Positions 8,921-51,194 of a DNA stretch of 64,000 nucleotides are shown here, one piece after another. The stretch lies in NCBI RefSeq assembly GCF_003018255.1, contig NZ_CP027440.1; one strand, written 5' to 3'. The notes under the pieces are model-generated. The model was not told where the DNA came from. It made no database searches and was given only the letters and a program-made list of their open reading frames with translations. Position numbers and translations under genes: made by a program. The stretch is from Escherichia coli. Lineage in GTDB: Bacteria > Pseudomonadota > Gammaproteobacteria > Enterobacterales > Enterobacteriaceae. How positions within the stretch are numbered: position 1 is the stretch's first letter; each line of letters starts with the position of its first letter.

Positions 8921-10186
8921 ATGCTCACGAAAAAGAAATGGGCGTTATTTAGTCTATTAACATTGTGTGGCGGTACAATTTATAAATTACCGTCTCTGAA
9001 AGATGCGTTTTATATCCCGATGCAGGAATATTTCCATTTGACCAATGGTCAAATTGGTAATGCTATGTCGGTAAACTCATTTGTCACCACAGTGGGCTTT
9101 TTTCTGTCTATTTATTTTGCCGATAAACTACCGCGCAGATACACCATGTCATTCTCACTCATTGCGACAGGATTACTGGGTGTTTATTTGACGACAATGC
9201 CGGGGTATTGGGGCATCCTCTTTGTCTGGGCGCTATTTGGCGTTACTTGCGACATGATGAACTGGCCGGTCTTGCTCAAGTCGGTAAGTCGATTGGGCAA
9301 TAGCGAACAACAAGGTCGGTTGTTTGGCTTCTTCGAAACAGGGCGTGGCATTGTCGATACCGTGGTGGCATTTTCTGCGTTGGCAGTATTTACCTGGTTT
9401 GGCAGTGGCTTATTGGGTTTTAAAGCAGGCATCTGGTTCTATTCCCTTATTGTGATTGCCGTAGGCATTATCATTTTCTTTGTCCTGAATGACAAAGAAG
9501 AGGCACCGTCCGTTGAGGTGAAAAAAGAAGACGGAGCATCGCAAAACACCAGTATGACCTCGGTGCTGAGAGATAAAACCATCTGGCTTATCGCTTTCAA
9601 CGTCTTCTTCGTTTACGCGGTTTACTGTGGCCTAACATTCTTCATTCCATTCCTGAAAAACATCTATCTATTGCCCGTTGCTCTGGTGGGGGCTTACGGC
9701 ATCATTAACCAATACTGTCTGAAAATGATTGGAGGACCGATTGGTGGCATGATTTCAGATAAGATCCTGAAATCGCCGAGTAAATATCTATGCTACACCT
9801 TTATCATAAGTACCGCTGCGCTCGTACTGTTGATTATGCTGCCGCACGAAAGTATGCCGGTCTATTTAGGGATGGCATGTACGCTGGGCTTTGGCGCTAT
9901 AGTCTTCACACAGCGAGCCGTATTTTTTGCACCTATCGGCGAAGCAAAAATTGCTGAAAATAAAACAGGCGCGGCGATGGCGTTGGGTAGCTTTATTGGT
10001 TACGCCCCGGCGATGTTCTGCTTCAGTCTGTATGGCTACATTCTGGATTTAAATCCGGGGATTATTGGCTACAAAATCGTGTTTGGCATTATGGCCTGCT
10101 TCGCATTCTGTGGTGCGGTGGTTTCCGTAATGCTGGTTAAGCGTATTAGCCAACGTAAGAAAGAGATGCTGGCGGCTGAAGCTTAA
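8921..10186 (+). CDS. yihN: MFS transporter, 421 aa
   Basis: Polytopic membrane protein; position and length match K-12 YihN. Confidence 0.85.
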   Translation: MLTKKKWALFSLLTLCGGTIYKLPSLKDAFYIPMQEYFHLTNGQIGNAMSVNSFVTTVGFFLSIYFADKLPRRYTMSFSLIATGLLGVYLTTMPGYWGILFVWALFGVTCDMMNWPVLLKSVSRLGNSEQQGRLFGFFETGRGIVDTVVAFSALAVFTWFGSGLLGFKAGIWFYSLIVIAVGIIIFFVLNDKEEAPSVEVKKEDGASQNTSMTSVLRDKTIWLIAFNVFFVYAVYCGLTFFIPFLKNIYLLPVALVGAYGIINQYCLKMIGGPIGGMISDKILKSPSKYLCYTFIISTAALVLLIMLPHESMPVYLGMACTLGFGAIVFTQRAVFFAPIGEAKIAENKTGAAMALGSFIGYAPAMFCFSLYGYILDLNPGIIGYKIVFGIMACFAFCGAVVSVMLVKRISQRKKEMLAAEA

Positions 10187-10245
10187 TTAGTGGCCGGATG
10201 TGCTTAATCCGGCCAACGAAAACCGTATCAACCGAAGTTTCAATT

Positions 10246-11034
10246 TCAGGATACTTCTTGCTCGGCAACCACCAGTTCAACATTCTCTTCACTTAACAAC
10301 TGGCAGAAAGAATTGGGAGGCGGGGCATCAGTAAAAAAAGCCCTGACATTCCGTGCATTGCCAATTGAAACGGCAGCAGACGCGGTAAACTTCGTATGAT
10401 CGGCCACTAACAATGTATTCCGCGCATGTTTAATCATCGTTCTCGCGACTAACGCTTCATTGACATCAAATTCCAGTAGGGTGCCGTCATGTTCAATGGC
10501 ACCTATACTGGTGATTAAATAATCTGCGCGGAAGCCTTCAATAAAATCCACGGCTCCTGGGCCGATAATCCCACCGTTATGAGCGCGTAAAGTGCCTCCC
10601 GGCACCATCACTTCAATATCCTGATTCTTATAAAGAATCTGTGCCACACGCAGGCTATTAGTGATAATGCGTAAATCACGCCGGTTGAGTAATGCCCTGG
10701 CAACGGCTTCTACGGTTGTACCGATGGTGATAAAGACGGTACAGCGTTCGGGAAGGTAATCGGCGACTGCCTCAGCGATCGCCCGTTTCTCGGCGGTGAG
10801 CGAAAGTTCCCGTTGCTCAAAAGCGGTATTCATGACGCTGGAGACGCGCCCGGCCCCTCCATGATGACGGGTGATCAAGCCCTGCTCACTGAGTTTTCGG
10901 ATATCCCGGCGCACGGTTTGCGTTGAAACATCCAGCAGTTGTGCCAGTTCTTCAATATTCATATAACCGCGTTCTGCGATTAGATGAACGAGTTGGTCAT
11001 GGCGTGGATTACCTGTCACTTCGATGATACTCAT
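10246..11034 (-). CDS. DeoR-family transcriptional regulator (YihW/CsqR-like), 262 aa
   Basis: N-terminal HTH (IEELAQLLDVSTQTVRRDIRKL) and DeoR C-terminal sugar-phosphate-binding domain; ATG read at 11032-11034 with upstream RBS. Confidence 0.8.
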   Translation of the reverse strand: MSIIEVTGNPRHDQLVHLIAERGYMNIEELAQLLDVSTQTVRRDIRKLSEQGLITRHHGGAGRVSSVMNTAFEQRELSLTAEKRAIAEAVADYLPERCTVFITIGTTVEAVARALLNRRDLRIITNSLRVAQILYKNQDIEVMVPGGTLRAHNGGIIGPGAVDFIEGFRADYLITSIGAIEHDGTLLEFDVNEALVARTMIKHARNTLLVADHTKFTASAAVSIGNARNVRAFFTDAPPPNSFCQLLSEENVELVVAEQEVS

Positions 11035-11073
11035 GAATACTCCCTTGCCCCTCCTCGGTAGATGTTTACCATT

Positions 11074-11970
11074 TTACGCATAAAGTGACAAAAATGATTC
11101 GGTTTGCTCACGATTAGGAATGCCGGCCCGACCGCCAGGCTGGGTACATTTCATCGCGGCAACCGCACTGGCAAAACGAATAGCCTCTTTTGTTGGCATT
11201 TTTTCTGCCAACGCTACCGCGAGTGCGCCGTGAAAAACATCGCCTGCTCCAGTGGTATCAACCACATTGACAGAAAATGCCTCCTGTTGACACAAATGAC
11301 CATCTTCAATCCACAACGATCCTTCAGAACCCAGCGTAACATACACTTTACCTGCTGTTTGTGTCGTTGCCTGGAACAAACCTTCTTCAGGTGACTGCAG
11401 GCCAGTCATGCGTTTCAGCCCAGGTGTTGAGAACACGGCGTGATCGGCAAGCGCGACAAGTGGAGAAATATCCTGCGGTGTCATATCGGCGTCTAAAAGC
11501 GTTGTCACACCCGCAAGGCGCGCTAGCGAGAATGCTTTTTCAGTACCGCTATGCCAGCGAACATCGGCCAGAATCAGATCATAACGAGAGAAATCGATCG
11601 CTTCTAACCATTCGGCATCAGTACCGAGATCAGGACTTGGATAATTAACGATAATCCGTTCGCCATGCTGATCAACGAGGATCGCTGATTGCGACGAACG
11701 GGCGTTAGGATATCGGCGGCAAAATGCGGTATTGACGCCCCAACCCTCAAGTTCTGCAAGTAAGGTATTTCCACAACTGTCATCGCCGACGCGACCGATG
11801 AAATCAACCTCCACGCCAAGCTTTGCGATTGCAACAGCGGCTGTTGCTGCCGGGCCGCCACCAATCTCAAGATAATGATTTGCCTGATATTTCCCGCCGC
11901 CCTCCGGCAGAGTGGGCAAAGAATAAATCCTGTCCTGAACTGTGATACCCACGCATGCAATTCTGGTCAT
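11074..11970 (-). CDS. PfkB-family sugar kinase (YihV / 6-deoxy-6-sulfofructose kinase-like), about 298 aa
   Basis: ORF 11074..12021; start placed at internal ATG ([13 protein letters not shown]...); PfkB signature [18 protein letters not shown]. Confidence 0.8.
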
Positions 11971-12142
11971 ATTTGTCTTGTCCTGTTTAATTTTGTCGTC
12001 TTTGGTCAATTTAAATGACACAAATGATCAAATTAGTGATGCGTGTCGTGTTTTTGAACATAAATTACAAATATGCTCAAAAACAGACGAAAACGAATTT
12101 TCAATTGTCATTATTTTGTCAATGTCAGACAGGAGAGTATTC
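11971..12142. promoter_or_regulatory. Divergent intergenic control region between the kinase/regulator and reductase/aldolase operons, with TTGTCA direct repeats
   Basis: AT-rich 172-bp region; TTGTCA read at 12105-12110 and 12116-12121 (11-bp spacing), tgtcag at 12123-12128; RBS aggagag at 12131-12137. Confidence 0.4.
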
Positions 12143-13021
12143 ATGGCAACCATTGCATTTCTCGGGCTGGGGCAGATGGGTAGCCCAATGGCTAACAATC
12201 TATTGCAAAAAGGGCATTCATTGCAGGTATTTGATGTCAATGCACAGGCCGTCGATGTGCTAGTTACGCAGGGGGCCACTGCGGCACAAACCCCAGCGGA
12301 AGCAGCAGCAGGCGCTGAATTTATCATCACTATGCTTCCCAATGGTGACATTGTTCGACAGGTTCTGTTGGGGGAAAAAGGCGTCTGTGAGGCTGTTTCA
12401 TCTGACGCGTTATTGATTGATATGTCGACTATTCATCCCTTACAGACCGATGCATTAATACGGGAGTTACAAGAAAAAGGCATCAGTATGATGGACGCTC
12501 CCGTGGGCAGAACGTCCGTGAATGCGATTGATGGCACATTGCTGATTTTAGCGGGTGGCACTGATGAGCAGATTGCACGTGCACGCCCGATTCTCATGTG
12601 CATGGGTAATGAACTGGTCGAGGCTGGCGGCCCAGGAATGGGGATCCGCGTGAAGCTAATTAACAACTATATGAGCATTGCGCTTAATGCGCTGTCCTCC
12701 GAGGCCGCTGTGTTATGTGAGTCACTGGGATTAAATCTTGATGTCGCAATTAAGGTGATGAGTGGTACGGCAGCAGGGAAAGGACATTTTACGACCACCT
12801 GGCCTGGCAAAGTGCTGAAAGGCGATCTTTCACCCGCCTTCATGGTGGATCTGGCGTTGAAAGATCTGCGTATTGCAGTTGACGTCGCTCGGGAGACGGG
12901 GGCACCGCTCAATATGGGGATTGCAGCAGAAAGTTATTACGCCGCAGCAAGTCAAGACGGCAAAGGGCGGCAGGATTGGAGTGCCCTGCTAAATCAGGTT
13001 CGCCAGCAGGCTGGTCTTTAA
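12143..13021 (+). CDS. NAD(P)-dependent HIBADH-family reductase (YihU / 3-sulfolactaldehyde reductase-like), about 292 aa
   Basis: ORF 11942..13021; start placed at ATG 12143 ([20 protein letters not shown], Rossmann GxGxxG). Confidence 0.8.
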
Positions 13022-13045
13022 TTTTATCTATTAACAGGAGTTTCT

Positions 13046-13933
13046 ATGTCATCCCACTTCACCCCATTTACGCTGAAAGATATCTCCCGCCCAGGTGGTG
13101 GATTCGCCATGTTAGCTGTCGATCAGCGTGAGGCCATGCGCCTGATGTTTGCGGCAGCAGGGCAGCCAAAACCCATCGCCGACAGTGTACTCACCGATTT
13201 TAAAGTTGCCGCGACCCGAATCCTTTCTCCTTATGCTTCTGCCGTTCTGGCGGATAAACAATTTTGTCTTGAACAAATAGTCGAGCAGGGCGCTGTGGCT
13301 AATTCTTGCGGCCTGATTGTCGCTGCCGATCTTTTTATCCCAGGTAATGGCATCCCGGTTGATAGCGTTGAAATAGATATGTCCGTCGACCCGCATAAAG
13401 CCCGTGAAATGGGGGCTAAGGCAATGAAATTACTTGTACTCTGGCGTGAAGATGAACCCGCAGAGGAACGTCTGGCAATGGTTGATAAATTTGTTCGTCG
13501 CTGCCGTAGTGCCGGGCTGGTTAGCATTATTGAACCTGTGGTGCGTCCACCTCGTCGCGGTTGGGACTTTGATCGTGAAAGCGCCATTGTTGCCGCCGCC
13601 GCAGAGCTTGGTGGAACAGAGGCTGATCTTTACAAAGCCGAGATGCCATTAGGGGGCAAAGGCGATGAAAAAACCTTACTTGCCGCCTGTCAGCAACTTA
13701 ACGATCAGATGAAGATGCCGTGGGTAATTCTTTCTTCTGGCGTTGATGCCGATATTTTTGGCCGTGCAGTAAGTATTGCCATGAAAGGTGGTGCGTCGGG
13801 CTTCCTGGCTGGACGAGCGGTATGGGCGTCGGTTGTTGGTGCACAAGATCCACAAACCATGCTGCGCGATGTCTCCGTTCCACGCTTGCAACGGCTGGCT
13901 GAAATTGTCGATGAAGGTATCGCGCAACGCTAA
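13046..13933 (+). CDS. Class I aldolase of the LacD/DeoC family (YihT / sulfofructose-phosphate aldolase-like), 295 aa
   Basis: ORF-track peptide [29 protein letters not shown]...; family assignment from recollection. Confidence 0.7.
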
Positions 13934-13965
13934 TCCCCTATGGATATCGATTCTGGAGAATAACA

Positions 13966-14976
13966 ATGGATAAAATTACCCAGGTTTTATTTTCAGATAT
14001 TGGGAAAGTCACCACTCAATATGTTGAAGTACCACACCAGCAACTTAAACCGCACGAAGTACGGATTGCGCCCGTGTTCTACGGGATATGCGGTTCGGAT
14101 CTGCATGTTCTGAAAGGCGGTCATCCGTTTGCCAAGCCGCCTGTCGTCCCCGGTCATGAAATTGCAGCGCGCGTTACGGAAGTGGGCAGCGACGTTAAAA
14201 ATGTACAGCCGGGCGATCATGTTGTGGTCGATCCCATCATGGCTTGCATGGAATGCCGAGCCTGCAAAGCAGGACGTTTTAATCTTTGTGAACCACCGCA
14301 GGTTGCTGGTTTTCGCGCACCGGGCTTTGCTCGCTCACAACACATTGTTCCTGCGCGTAATTGCCATGTCGCACCAGCCTCTTTACCGCTAAAAGTGTTG
14401 GCCTTTGCCGAACCGGCGGCTTGTGCTCGTCACTGCGTTAACCGAATGCCGAAAGCTTCTCTGGAAAGCGTACTGGTGATTGGTGCCGGAACGATAGGCT
14501 TATCCATCGTGCAGGCACTGCGCATTATGGGGGCAGGTAAGATTACCGTGATTGAACCTGACGCTGCCAAACGCGCGCTGGCGTTAAAGCTGGGCGCAGC
14601 AGAAGTTTGGGCACCAGGTGAGCTGGCCGCAGATGTGAGATTTACGGGGGCGATTGATGTCGTTGCAGCGCAGGCCACGCTTAACGATGCATGTACCCGT
14701 GTATATGCCGGAGGCACCGTCGTGTGCATGGGCGTACCAAGTGGGCCGCGTGAAATACCATTACCGATGATGCAACGTTTCGAGCGTGACTTGCTCAACT
14801 CTGGCATGTACATCCCTGAAGATTTCGATGCTGTTATCGAATGGCTGGCGGATGGGCGGTTTGATACCAGTGAACTGGTTACCGATTTATTTGCCATTGA
14901 GGATGCAGCGGCGGCATTCGAACGCGCGCAGCAAAATGACTCCATAAAGGTCATGCTGCAATTTGCGCCGGAATGA
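13966..14976 (+). CDS. Zn-dependent medium-chain alcohol/polyol dehydrogenase (sorbitol/galactitol-1-phosphate dehydrogenase-like), 336 aa
   Basis: Catalytic-zinc motif CGSDLH...GHE, structural-zinc cysteines CMECRACKAGRFNLC, NAD-binding VIGAGTIGL. Confidence 0.8.
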   Translation: MDKITQVLFSDIGKVTTQYVEVPHQQLKPHEVRIAPVFYGICGSDLHVLKGGHPFAKPPVVPGHEIAARVTEVGSDVKNVQPGDHVVVDPIMACMECRACKAGRFNLCEPPQVAGFRAPGFARSQHIVPARNCHVAPASLPLKVLAFAEPAACARHCVNRMPKASLESVLVIGAGTIGLSIVQALRIMGAGKITVIEPDAAKRALALKLGAAEVWAPGELAADVRFTGAIDVVAAQATLNDACTRVYAGGTVVCMGVPSGPREIPLPMMQRFERDLLNSGMYIPEDFDAVIEWLADGRFDTSELVTDLFAIEDAAAAFERAQQNDSIKVMLQFAPE

Positions 14977-15045
14977 TTTTCTAAATCTCTGTCTGGCGCT
15001 GCGTCACGTCAGCGCCACCCTACAACAATTAAAAAGGACACTGCG

Positions 15046-16479
15046 ATGAGTCAAATCACCAGTCCTGCAACTTATTCAATTAGTCGGCCACAGGACGTAA
15101 TTGATATTGTTAATAAGAACTCTGCAATCAACACCAGTATCGGCGTTATTTTTATTGCTTTGGGCGGCATATTGATTGATGCCTACCAGGTGGCGATGGT
15201 GGGGTTTGGTAATAAATACATTGCCGCTCAATTCGGCATTTCTCCGGGTCTTGCTGCGACCGTCAATGCGTCAGTATTAATCGCCGCGTTAATTGGCGGT
15301 TTATTAGCGAACCGAGTAATAAACCGCTTTGGGCAAAAGCGGGCATTTATTATTGGCATGGGGCTGTGCACCATCGGTGCTGCAGCGGTAGCTATTGCTC
15401 CCAGTATCTGGTGGGTGCTGGTGTGCCGCGTCATCATGGGCTTTGGTTTAGGCATCGACTTCCCTTTGGCAACTAATGCCGTGGCAGAGCTTCGTGGTTC
15501 AACGTCGAAGAAAACCGGAACGTCGGTCAACCTCTGGCAAATGGCCTGGTATGTTTCGACAACCGTTGTTTATTTGGTGCTTTTGCCGCTGCTTCTGTCG
15601 GGTATCGCTGAAGAACAATTGTGGCGTTACGGAATATTCATCGGAGCTATTTTTGCAGTCATCTTCATGATTTTGCGTTACTTCTTTATTGGTGAATCCG
15701 CAATGTGGGCCGCACGCGTTGGGCGTTACCAGGAAGCGTGCGACATTCTGGGAAAACGTTATGGTGTTCAGGCTCGCGTTGCGGCATCGGGTACAACAGA
15801 AGCGAAATTCTCGGAAAAAGCAGAGAATAAATACAGTGGTGGATATGGCATCTTATTTAATGATCGTTACCGCAAACGCACCATTCTTGGCTGTGTCGTG
15901 GCAACCATGCAGGCGTGGCAATATAACGCCGTAGGTGTTTATCTTCCTCTTACGTTGGCGGGAATAATAAGTGGCGGGCTTACTGGCGCGTTGACCGGTT
16001 CTGCCGTCGTGAATGCCCTTTGTGGGGTGACAGGTGGGATGATCGGCTCGTTTATTCTCCAACGACTGGGTACTCGCCGACAGTCGATGTATGGATTTGC
16101 TGTTGTGACCTTAGCATTGCTGTCGTTAGGCGCACTGGCAACGACTAATCCTTGGCTGTCTTTAGGGTTATTGGGATCAATTATTTTCTTCCATTCAGCG
16201 GGTCCTGGTGGGCTGGGCATGACCATTGCCACACTCTCTTATCCTCCCGCTATTCGCCCTACTGGGGTCGGATTTGCCCGCGCTATTATGCGCACAGGGG
16301 CAATTGCAGGACTCATTTTCTGGCCGATGCTGTGGGGTGCGTTGAAAACTGAAGCGTTTTACTGGTTGGCAATCGTGCCATTCCTGGGATTCCTAACCTG
16401 TGTATTGATTAATTGGGAACCACTGGGTGCAAATGTTGATGCTGAGGACGCAGAGGTTCTGGCTGAATTGAAGAAATAA
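15046..16479 (+). CDS. MFS transporter, 477 aa
   Basis: Multiple hydrophobic segments; MFS motif A (GGLLANRVINRFGQKRAF). Confidence 0.8.
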   Translation: MSQITSPATYSISRPQDVIDIVNKNSAINTSIGVIFIALGGILIDAYQVAMVGFGNKYIAAQFGISPGLAATVNASVLIAALIGGLLANRVINRFGQKRAFIIGMGLCTIGAAAVAIAPSIWWVLVCRVIMGFGLGIDFPLATNAVAELRGSTSKKTGTSVNLWQMAWYVSTTVVYLVLLPLLLSGIAEEQLWRYGIFIGAIFAVIFMILRYFFIGESAMWAARVGRYQEACDILGKRYGVQARVAASGTTEAKFSEKAENKYSGGYGILFNDRYRKRTILGCVVATMQAWQYNAVGVYLPLTLAGIISGGLTGALTGSAVVNALCGVTGGMIGSFILQRLGTRRQSMYGFAVVTLALLSLGALATTNPWLSLGLLGSIIFFHSAGPGGLGMTIATLSYPPAIRPTGVGFARAIMRTGAIAGLIFWPMLWGALKTEAFYWLAIVPFLGFLTCVLINWEPLGANVDAEDAEVLAELKK

Positions 16480-16577
16480 TTTAATGCGCATCGGCTTAAG
16501 CCGATGCGCATTAATTCAAACTGCCCACGTTTAGTGGTTCGTATCCCAGATTTCTCGCCTACCAGGAGAGGAAAATT

Positions 16578-17927
16578 ATGTCTGAAAAGTTACCCGCACC
16601 GCGTGAAGGGCTTTCCGGTAAAGCCATGAGACGTGTCGTTATGGGCAGTTTCGCAGGCGCGTTAATGGAATGGTATGACTTCTTTATTTTTGGCACGGCA
16701 GCAGGACTGGTATTTGCACCGCTGTTTTATCCAGACAGCGATCCTTTTATAGGTCTTATAGCTTCCTTTGCGACCTTTGGTGTCGGTTTTCTGACTCGTC
16801 CTTTAGGGGGCATCGTCTTTGGTCATTTTGGCGATAAAATCGGGCGAAAAATAACACTTATCTGGACGCTGGCTATTGTCGGTTGCTCCACATTTTTGAT
16901 TGGTTTTATTCCGACGTATCAGGAAATTGGCATTTGGGCACCGCTTGTATTAATGGTGCTGCGTTTGATTCAGGGCTTTGGTCTTGGTGGCGAGTACGGT
17001 GGAGCGGCATTGATGACCATAGAATCAGCGCCCGAATCCCGACGCGGATTTTTAGGTTCACTCCCGCAAACGGCTGCGTCTGTGGGTATTATGCTGGCAA
17101 CCGGTATTTTTGCTCTCTGTAACCATTTTCTTACTTCGGAGCAGTTTCTCTCCTGGGGATGGCGCATTCCGTTTTGGCTTTCTGCGGTGATGTTGATCGT
17201 TGGGCTGTTTATCCGCCTACATACCGAAGAAACGCTGGATTTTCAAAAGCAAAAAACGACGAATAATAAAGAAAAGTCCGTTCCTCCGTTGATTGAATTA
17301 TTCAAAAAACATCCACGAAATATTTTATTGGCACTGGGTGCGAGGCTGGCGGAAAGTGTCTCCTCTAATATTATTAATGCCTTTGGTATTGTCTATATTT
17401 CCAGCCAATTAGCATTGTCGCGAGATATTCCCCTGACGGGTATGTTGATTGCCTCGGCGATCGGTATTTTCAGTTGTCCATTGGTTGGATGGTTATCAGA
17501 TCGTATAGGTCAAAAAAGTCTGTATTTGTCGGGAGCAGGATTTTGTGTCCTGTTCGCGTTTCCTTTCTTCTTATTATTGGATAGCAAAAGTACGCTCATC
17601 ATCTGGTGCAGTATGATCCTCGGCTACAACTTAGGTCCGACGATGATGTTTGCCGTGCAGCCAACACTTTTCACCCGCATGTTCGGTACCAAAGTACGAT
17701 ATACCGGCCTTTCTTTTGCTTATCAATTTTCCGCGATTCTTGGCGGACTAAGCCCCCTTATCGCCTCAAGTTTGCTGGCGCTAGGGGGAGGAAAACCGTG
17801 GTATGTCGCTCTGTTTTTATTTGCTGTCTCAGTTCTTTCCTTTGTTTGCGTCTGGCTGATTGAGCCGACCGATGAACAAGAAACCGCTTCTTACCGCTAC
17901 ATCAGGGAACAATCTCATGAAAACTGA
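16578..17927 (+). CDS. MFS transporter of the metabolite:H+ symporter type (ProP/KgtP/ShiA-like), 449 aa
   Basis: Characteristic N-terminus EWYDFFIFG and GHFGDKIGRK loop motif. Confidence 0.75.
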   Translation: MSEKLPAPREGLSGKAMRRVVMGSFAGALMEWYDFFIFGTAAGLVFAPLFYPDSDPFIGLIASFATFGVGFLTRPLGGIVFGHFGDKIGRKITLIWTLAIVGCSTFLIGFIPTYQEIGIWAPLVLMVLRLIQGFGLGGEYGGAALMTIESAPESRRGFLGSLPQTAASVGIMLATGIFALCNHFLTSEQFLSWGWRIPFWLSAVMLIVGLFIRLHTEETLDFQKQKTTNNKEKSVPPLIELFKKHPRNILLALGARLAESVSSNIINAFGIVYISSQLALSRDIPLTGMLIASAIGIFSCPLVGWLSDRIGQKSLYLSGAGFCVLFAFPFFLLLDSKSTLIIWCSMILGYNLGPTMMFAVQPTLFTRMFGTKVRYTGLSFAYQFSAILGGLSPLIASSLLALGGGKPWYVALFLFAVSVLSFVCVWLIEPTDEQETASYRYIREQSHEN

Positions 17928-18804
17928 ACGAAAAAACGAGCATTACCTGGCGCTACAACAGGCGTTTGACGCGCCATGGCCTGGGCCTGTAGGAGAGTTA
18001 GTGATGCTGGAAAAAGGCAATATTCACCTGCAGATTTATCCGCATGATGGTGCCAGGATAACCTCGTTAAAGGCATTTGGTTCTGAAGTATTACGCCAAT
18101 GGCAGCCGCAGCGCAGAGCTTTTCAGTATGGCTGTTTCCCAATGGTGCCGTGGGCAGGGCGACTGGGGAATGCGACGCTGAATGCTGGTGGGCAATGTTA
18201 TTCTTTACCCGCCAATAAACCACCACATGCGTTGCATGGTATGGCTTGTTACTCAACGTGGGAAATCATCGACAAAACAGCAGATTCCCTGACTTTACGT
18301 ATGCCCCTGGCTTCACCGTGGCCCTGGCAAGGGGAAGTGATTCAGACTTTTTTGCTGGAGAACGATGCGCTGGTTTTGCAACTGGAAGTCCATTCATATG
18401 CCGATACATTCCCGGCCTCCGCAGGCTGGCATCCGTGGTTTGCGAAAAAGCTGACTCCGCAAAATACAGAATCGTTGCAGGTGCTTTTTGATGCGGACTG
18501 GCAAGAAGAAGCGGGTAGTGATGAACTGCCAACTGGAAATCGTATCTCTCCTCAAGTCGGTCCCTGGGATGACTGTTTTGGTTTTTATGACGGGGTGAAG
18601 GTTAAGTTACTGTGGCCTGGTAAACTCGCGATGACCATGACCTCTTCTGCAAACAGTCTGGTGGTATTTGATAAACAGCCCGATGCCACCTGTATTAACC
18701 CGCTGACTCAGGCACCTAACGCAATAAATCTAACGCCGGAATTTGTGACACCAGATAAGCCGCTGGTCATCGAAACTCGTTGGCAATTTACACCTGAATC
18801 TTAA
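17872..18804 (+). CDS. Aldose 1-epimerase (mutarotase)-like protein (YihR-like), about 310 aa; alternative ATG at 17917
   Basis: ORF 17860..18804 begins at a TTG; ATG codons at 17872 and 17917; start overlaps the end of the upstream transporter gene. Confidence 0.65.
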   Translation: MNKKPLLTATSGNNLMKTERKNEHYLALQQAFDAPWPGPVGELVMLEKGNIHLQIYPHDGARITSLKAFGSEVLRQWQPQRRAFQYGCFPMVPWAGRLGNATLNAGGQCYSLPANKPPHALHGMACYSTWEIIDKTADSLTLRMPLASPWPWQGEVIQTFLLENDALVLQLEVHSYADTFPASAGWHPWFAKKLTPQNTESLQVLFDADWQEEAGSDELPTGNRISPQVGPWDDCFGFYDGVKVKLLWPGKLAMTMTSSANSLVVFDKQPDATCINPLTQAPNAINLTPEFVTPDKPLVIETRWQFTPES

Positions 18805-18944
18805 CCATTCATCTATTGCGAAAAAGACAGTGAAATTACTCTGCTTTTTCGCAATCAGCATCACAAGATTACCCTTATTGCCACATAGCCAAACCCATCC
18901 TTTCCCGCTACAGTTAATTTCTTGTGGCGCGAAAGGAGGCAAAA

Positions 18945-19544
18945 ATGCTCTATATCTTTGATTTAGGTAATGTGATTGTCGATATCGACTTTAACCGTGT
19001 GCTGGGGGCCTGGAGCGATTTAACGCGTGTTCCACTGGCTACGCTTAAGAAGAGTTTCCACATGGGCGAGGCGTTTCATCAGCATGAGCGTGGGGAAATT
19101 AGCGACGAAGCGTTCGCAGAGGCGCTGTGTCATGAGATGGCCCTGCCGCTAAGCTACGAGCAGTTCTCTCACGGCTGGCAGGCGGTGTTTGTCGCGCTGC
19201 GCCCGGAAGTGATCGCCATCATGCATAAACTGCGTGAGCAGGGGCATCGCGTGGTGGTGCTTTCCAATACCAACCGCCTGCATACCACCTTCTGGCCGGA
19301 AGAATATCCGGAAATTCGTGATGCTGCTGACCATATCTATCTGTCGCAAGATCTGGGGATGCGCAAACCCGAAGCACGAATTTACCAGCATGTTTTGCAG
19401 GCGGAAGGTTTTTCACCAGACGATACGGTCTTTTTCGACGATAACGCCGATAATATAGAAGGAGCTAATCGGCTAGGCATTACTAGTATTCTGGTGAAAG
19501 ATAAAACCACCATCCCGGACTATTTCGCGAAGGTGTTATGCTAA
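18945..19544 (+). CDS. yihX: HAD-family alpha-D-glucose-1-phosphate phosphatase, 199 aa
   Basis: ORF 18924..19544; start at internal Met ([17 protein letters not shown]...), HAD motif I. Confidence 0.9.
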
Positions 19545-51171: not shown

Positions 51172-51194
51172 GTGCCGGATATGAAATCCGGCAC
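51172..51194. terminator. Bidirectional hairpin terminator between cdh and tpiA (gtgccggatatgaaatccggcac)
   Basis: Perfect 8-bp stem read between the convergent stops. Confidence 0.65.

Follow-up and report, generated by a model that had tools for sequence, protein, structure and literature searches.

The interval between yihN and yihX of Escherichia coli is polymorphic. K-12 carries the sulfoquinovose cluster ompL-yihOPQRSTU/yihV-csqR at this position, and "long" and "short" yih cassettes of the species have been described by Kaznadzey et al. (2025; PMC12608037), who also report a reversed orientation and the occurrence in B2 strains as well as in Nissle 1917 and who propose a recombination hotspot. 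The stretch of DNA analyzed here, 64,000 nucleotides (nt) of E. coli contig NZ_CP027440.1 and referred to below as the window, covers the typA-yihLMN...yihX-yihY-dtd region, and its yihN-yihX interval holds eight genes other than those of K-12, which we call the cassette. It represents the identical locus with the identical two alleles as in that publication, which makes no mention of hairpins, terminators, or breakpoints; here, the breakpoints are resolved to the base. Moreover, the short form described there consists of yihTUVW only, whereas the cassette considered here is an eight-gene cluster conserved across genera.

Two inverted repeats lie at the borders of the cassette, one behind yihN (the left hairpin) and one behind the last cassette gene, which encodes an aldose-1-epimerase (the right repeat). 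The initial annotation offered two explanations for them, namely, that they mark the recombination junctions of a locus replacement or that they stabilize RNA. For the left hairpin, the described structures to compare are the repetitive extragenic palindromic (REP) sequences, which are known stabilizers of mRNA 3' ends and carry at their stem foot a GTAG/CTAC tetranucleotide, the recognition motif of the REP-associated tyrosine transposases (RAYTs); for the right repeat, they are the intrinsic terminators. We found that neither hairpin marks the exchange point of the two locus versions. With somewhat more confidence than doubt, we favor reading the left hairpin as a 3' stem-loop of the REP type and the right repeat as an RNA stem-loop at the end of an operon, neither of them being a canonical terminator or a recombination site. 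Of the two explanations offered, RNA stabilization is plausible and the better one.

We used window positions 9900-19300 as a megablast query against 5,426 complete E. coli genomes. The full stretch is present in 1,325 of these, and K-12-type genomes align solely at query positions 1-338 and 8979-9401. From yihN onward, K-12 BW25113 and the window share every base until a point 21 nt past the left hairpin, up to ...CAACCG (10236), which places the left breakpoint at 10236/10237, 21 nt downstream of the hairpin; beyond it, K-12 continues with a canonical REP (TAGGCCGGATAAGGCGTTTACGCCGCATCCGGCA) in the opposite orientation and the window with cassette DNA. The left hairpin is thus the same base for base, and at the same position after yihN, in the K-12-type locus, and the yihN 3' flank that contains it occurs in 4,257 of the 5,426 genomes, mostly carriers of the K-12-type cluster. 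Presence at the identical position in such genomes was named in the initial annotation as the result that would refute the junction explanation, and for the left hairpin that explanation is not supported. On the other side, K-12-type and cassette-type sequences are identical from 18878 on (TTGCCACATAGCC...), giving a right breakpoint at 18877/18878. The right repeat is absent from K-12-type genomes, but it is a single-copy sequence that lies 22 nt inside cassette-specific DNA and not at the junction.

The left hairpin was initially delineated as gccgga-tgtgcttaa-tccggc at 10193-10213, with a 6-bp stem. Its place is correct, but the stem is longer, pairing perfectly over 9 bp (TGGCCGGAT at 10191-10199 with ATCCGGCCA at 10207-10215) around a loop of 7 nt. 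It begins 4 nt beyond the yihN stop codon (10184-10186) and is extragenic, in a 59-nt gap between the convergent yihN and DeoR-type regulator genes. The predicted RNA fold has a free energy of -17.1 kcal/mol (z = -4.2), and none of 200 shuffled sequences was equally stable. The right repeat was confirmed as a perfect 12-bp inverted repeat, ATTGCGAAAAAG at 18815-18826 and CTTTTTCGCAAT at 18844-18855, with a spacer of 17 nt; it begins 10 nt past the epimerase stop codon (18802-18804), and its fold reaches -17.7 kcal/mol (z = -4.4), with three further pairs contributed by the spacer (C18828-G18843, A18829-U18842, and G18830-C18841). In the 64-kb window, there are 12 perfect inverted repeats with arms of 9 bp or more and loops no longer than 10 nt (2.2 in dinucleotide shuffles) and 7 with arms of 12 bp or more and loops no longer than 20 nt (0.07 in shuffles). 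Both inverted repeats are therefore nonrandom, yet as intergenic hairpins they are of a common type.

Both had been described as lacking a T-run. This is true of the left hairpin on either strand, where the stem is followed by ACGAAAAC on the plus strand and by CTAATTAA on the minus strand (no U-tract), and only partly true of the right repeat. There, the tail after the stem reads CAGCATC and has no T-run, but the inner portion of the 3' arm consists of a T5 run, matched by A5 in the 5' arm. Neither structure was scored as a terminator by the pattern scanner, and an Rfam scan of 9900-19300 with E values up to 5 gave no match at either hairpin. The right repeat resembles an intrinsic terminator in that it occupies the position of the terminators of orthologous clusters and shows the order A5 run, small stem-loop, T5 run; it differs in that its stable form buries the U-run in the helix and has no U-tract after it. 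The inner stem ahead of the T5 run amounts, by itself, to only -1.1 kcal/mol, so a canonical terminator is unlikely here.

The likeness of the left hairpin to REPs is seen in its extragenic position and in the conserved REP stem base, GCCGGAT...ATCCGGCC. The core pattern GCCGGAT-N(3-30)-ATCCGGC occurs 6 times in the window (0.03 expected), 4 of these occurrences being full 30-nt REP cores, and when the hairpin is aligned to these four full REPs, about 9 nt from the interior of the 30-nt core are missing from it. Furthermore, the K-12 allele pairs it with the full inverted REP 21 nt away, an arrangement like that of a bacterial interspersed mosaic element (BIME). The MG1655 RefSeq table lists no REP feature between yihN and ompL, and the REP assignment therefore rests on sequence comparison. 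From this comparison, the left hairpin appears to be a decayed, internally shortened REP of the yihN 3' flank, probably a dead copy. The only other short REP form seen in the window (GTGCCGGAT-atgaa-ATCCGGCAC, 51172-51194), also a hairpin on the REP stem base, lies between two convergent open reading frames.

The left border of the window carries a secondary change. E. coli 600468 (L029) and a cryptic-clade Escherichia sp. (L005) have the same yihN-cassette arrangement, with 51 extra bases between CAACCG and AAGTTTC. The bases missing from the window comprise what is left of a collapsed REP (TAGGCCGCATCCGGCA) and, immediately after the DeoR gene, a hairpin (AAAATCCGCTGAATCCCCAGCGGATTTTT); the join in the window shows CG/CCG microhomology. 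Since 600468 and L005 keep the REP remnant, the homology between the two alleles extends through the REP, and the true left boundary of the variable DNA is therefore the 3' end of that REP. In a census of the junction, 204 genomes (Nissle 1917 among them) had the deletion, 424 had the full form, and 626 had a third form, in which typA adjoins the cassette and yihLMN is missing. The lost DeoR-side hairpin folds with about -17 kcal/mol in a 61-nt stretch and has a U-rich tail on the minus strand, although its maximal stem absorbs part of the U-run; in Citrobacter and Phytobacter, a hairpin composed of an A-tract, a GC stem, and a T-tract lies at the equivalent site behind the DeoR gene. By inspection, the deleted hairpin looks like one of the bidirectional A-tract/stem/T-tract terminators. 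The convergent yihN and DeoR genes shared this hairpin, and its removal by the 51-bp deletion leaves the REP-like one as the sole structure in the 59-nt gap.

To gain an idea about the distribution of the right repeat, we searched for the 73-nt segment that contains it. This segment occurs in 1,386 of the 5,426 E. coli genomes, in one copy per genome, and nearly all of these copies differ from the window at one site, position 18827 beside the left arm (read from the alignment with AVS0155). A scan with the epimerase protein, using one genome per species, yielded 24 loci, among which only that of the cryptic-clade Escherichia sp. has the right repeat, with identical arms and two changes in the spacer; the genes neighboring the repeat diverge by 4 to 8% between this locus and the window. 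The right repeat is thus specific to Escherichia and part of the cassette's own DNA. In most of the 24 orthologous clusters, a hairpin lies about 70 nt or less from the epimerase stop codon, and about seven of these hairpins resemble standard terminators, judging by reading of the printed sequences. In Citrobacter sp. R56, a like-built hairpin (GAAATGAAAAG...CTTTTTATTTT around a small inner stem), a probable homologue of the right repeat, begins 11 nt past the stop codon. The R56 flanks align to those of E. coli with a score of 33 versus 17.5 ± 3.5, a value reached by 4 of 2,000 shuffles and higher than at all 12 control loci, and both arms of the R56 outer stem differ from those of E. coli with pairing retained. 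A protein search with contig look-ups gave three R56-like loci and two Citrobacter loci without the segment, which are too few for covariation. A metagenome scan for variants of the right repeat with its 18-nt flank CAGCATCACAAGATTACC returned 21 matches, only one of which is the true locus (L046, with the majority E. coli allele), the others being chance matches in unrelated genes.

The right breakpoint coincides with the start of a conserved yihX leader. In all configurations seen, the variable DNA stops at this leader (CATAGYCAAAC), including Citrobacter with an inserted autotransporter gene. In C. sedlakii (L009) and Citrobacter sp. R56 (L010 11397-14135), additional DNA separates the epimerase gene from the yihX leader, and the same boundary is reused; in R56, this DNA consists of a gene for a 912-amino-acid autotransporter. 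CATAGYCAAAC may be the -35 region of a promoter, TAGCCA-N17-TACAGT, which the scanner did not call. The leader can form a hairpin (18898-18912/18923-18937) in which CCTTTC pairs with the yihX Shine-Dalgarno sequence. We also observed that positions 18856-18935 are C rich and G poor (25 C and 12 G in 80 nt, with a C/G ratio at the 98.7th percentile of 80-nt windows), as would be typical of Rho loading sites. A weak CRP-like half-match, AGTGA-N6-TCTGC, was spotted by eye in the spacer of the right repeat.

REPs are join-points for rearrangements and targets for insertion sequences, and the left boundary of the polymorphic DNA does coincide with a REP (full in K-12 and a remnant in cassette genomes). 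Nonetheless, it is very unlikely that the two hairpins mark or promoted the exchange between K-12-type and cassette DNA, be it as recombination sites, as ends of an element, or as break-prone cruciforms, because the left hairpin is not that boundary REP but a neighbor inside shared DNA, unchanged in K-12. On the right, such a role could appeal to a single genome of the 5,426, O157:H7 TR01, in which an illegitimate join inside the right repeat forms the left end of a cassette-type patch. This K-12-type locus (L004 2410-2640) has received about 310 bp equivalent to window positions 18841 to about 19150, and the join, unique in the data set, joins csqR, deprived of its stop codon, to the right arm. 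The remaining evidence argues against exchange at the hairpins. The right repeat occurs once per genome and short of the breakpoint, the two hairpins are unrelated in sequence, and the longest word common to both borders is 6 nt in direct and 7 nt in inverted orientation, which is the mode of shuffles. There is no target-site duplication at the breakpoints, and the annotation of the eight cassette genes (metabolic, transport, and regulator) includes no recombinase, integrase, or transposase. Finally, Citrobacter and Phytobacter carry the cassette between yihN (or typA) and yihX without these hairpins. We likewise give very little credence to a variant in which the right palindrome and the true left-boundary REP would be break-prone ends of exchange tracts that sustain the recombination hotspot, with TR01 as one example. 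Equally hard to credit is a DNA-level function of the right repeat as a binding site, either for the cassette's DeoR-type repressor or for an activator of yihX. It is a perfect palindrome about 30 to 70 nt upstream of the conserved yihX leader, and its 12-bp arms and 17-nt spacer are superficially like an operator-like palindrome of the cassette, TGTTTTTGA-N19-TCAAAAACA. However, the half-sites are of opposite polarity (A5...T5 versus T5...A5), and the two palindromes are not alike in sequence. With at most 2 mismatches, the arm motif has 14 matches elsewhere in the window, no enrichment over the 10.6 expected, and none of them falls in the promoter region. Where the right repeat lies, K-12 and Citrobacter have unrelated sequence or none, with the same yihX leader following. 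The right repeat as a DeoR operator was dropped, given that the conserved operator-like palindrome has the opposite polarity.

A serious rival to a functional RNA stem-loop, if a less likely one in our estimate, is that the right repeat is a neutral relic, i.e., a decayed intrinsic terminator or a palindrome perfected by template switching that is carried along in Escherichia without function. Several observations agree with it and weigh against the reading we favor. The whole segment is absent from Citrobacter loci with the same adjacency, in which the epimerase gene abuts yihX (L006, L008, L054, and L055). Among the R56-lineage relatives, one locus (L053) has a mismatch in the hairpin and another (L052) has lost it by a deletion of about 20 bp, so the structure is dispensable in that lineage. 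The arms are invariant across the 1,386 genomes, meaning that variation within Escherichia lends no support, and the 2 changes in 73 nt relative to the cryptic-clade locus are not significantly below the neighboring divergence of about 7%. The low stability of the inner stem would also fit a decayed terminator, and K-12 likewise has no terminator between csqR and yihX. On the left, the hairpin is about 9 nt shorter than a REP and its upper stem is gone; its foot is GGCCAAC, whereas the five full REPs compared all have GGCCTAC, so that CAAC stands in the place of CTAC and, on the opposite strand, GTTG in that of GTAG, the tetranucleotide of REPs. In addition, the terminator scanner did not call the DeoR-side hairpin of E. 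coli, and its terminator reading therefore rests on inspection. What speaks against a mere relic is that the perfect 12-bp complementarity is kept in both E. coli and the cryptic Escherichia clade despite the divergence of the neighboring genes, that the R56 counterpart still pairs although its arms differ in sequence, and that orthologous clusters as a rule have a hairpin here.

Under the favored reading of two RNA stem-loops, the roles proposed, i.e., 3'-end protection and possibly weak termination, derive from the biology of REPs and from the positions of the hairpins. The left hairpin predates the split of the two locus alleles. On the yihN transcript, it would most likely form a stable 3' stem-loop that blocks 3'-to-5' exonucleases, as REPs do; this proposal draws on its REP likeness and on the known stabilizing effect of REPs. 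Because it lies so close to the stop codon, only 4 nt away, it may also dampen the translation of yihN. The right repeat would form the stem-loop at the 3' end of the operon that runs from the reductase to the epimerase gene. Its helix is rich in A and U, with a stability of about -17 kcal/mol, and buries the U-run; most likely it functions as RNA, either protecting the 3' end or terminating weakly ahead of the yihX promoter region. The coordinates of all features are collected in Table 1.

Table 1. Hairpins, junctions, and cassette features of the yihN-yihX interval (window positions).
Feature	Position	Strand	Basis
Left hairpin, shortened REP-like palindrome TGGCCGGAT-gtgctta-ATCCGGCCA	10191..10215	+	Structure, K-12 identity, REP pattern and alignment
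Spacer ACGAAAACCGTATCAACCG(..), common to window and K-12	10216..10236	.	Alignment; full inverted REP next in K-12
Left junction CCG/AAG, secondary 51-bp deletion	10235..10238	.	Alignment with L029, L005, and AVS0155 L003
Cassette-specific DNA	10237..18877	.	Megablast, annotation, gene order in relatives
Cassette minus-strand genes: DeoR-type regulator, sugar kinase		-	Annotation
Cassette plus-strand genes: YihU-like reductase, aldolase, Zn-dependent alcohol dehydrogenase, two MFS transporters, aldose-1-epimerase		+	Annotation
Right inverted repeat, after last gene of six-gene plus-strand operon	18815..18855	+	Structure, fold, distribution
Inner 3-bp stem extension (CAG/CUG), 10-nt loop	18828..18843	+	Fold
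Cassette-specific tail CAGCATCACAAGATTACCCTTA, from repeat to right breakpoint	18856..18877	.	Alignment
Conserved yihX leader	18878..18944	+	Common to both alleles, Citrobacter, and Phytobacter

Across loci L005-L028, the gene order of the cluster (10246-18804) is kept in Citrobacter, Mixta, Phytobacter, and Trabulsiella and largely kept in Budvicia, Leminorella, Edaphovirga, Vibrio, and Succinivibrionaceae, and its plus-strand part is found again in some alpha- and betaproteobacteria. The eight-gene cluster, which has an alcohol dehydrogenase but no isomerase or sulfoquinovosidase, looks like a separate pathway in which the former replaces the latter two, and not like a truncated K-12 cluster. 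In Citrobacter and Phytobacter, it is likewise placed between yihN (or typA) and yihX, and this common placement shows that the arrangement is old and not a recent insertion or replacement. The direct adjacency of typA and the cassette, seen in the 626 E. coli genomes of the third junction form (at L003 2930-3010; sequence type 131 strain EC958 is another example), is also found in C. amalonaticus, C. sedlakii, and Phytobacter (left flanks of L009, L011, and L016), which suggests that yihLMN is the inserted part.

Within the cassette, the operator-like palindrome lies at 12049-12085, in the divergent kinase/reductase promoter. Its core, GTGA..TGTC..TTTTT..ATAAATTACAAATA..TCAAAAACAGAC, is conserved in the K-12 yihU/V region and in the cassettes of four genera, and the palindrome is probably a CsqR/YihW operator. 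A perfect 15-bp palindrome between the two MFS genes (16481-16514) has been kept across genera, 4 of its stem pairs showing compensatory changes, and it is followed at about 16551-16573 by a second conserved hairpin, in which TTTCTCGCC pairs with the Shine-Dalgarno sequence of the second MFS gene.

In themselves, the two hairpins carry little weight, being by our reading a degenerate REP and an unremarkable operon-end stem-loop. The value of the analysis lies in the base-level breakpoints of a published polymorphism, with the left one at a REP and the right one at the start of the conserved yihX leader, and in showing that the cassette-type arrangement is old and common to Citrobacter and Phytobacter. 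Moreover, the 51-bp deletion of Nissle-like strains leaves the convergent yihN and DeoR-regulator genes without the one terminator-like hairpin that lay between them, which could bear on the published nonresponse of the Nissle cassette to sulfoquinovose.

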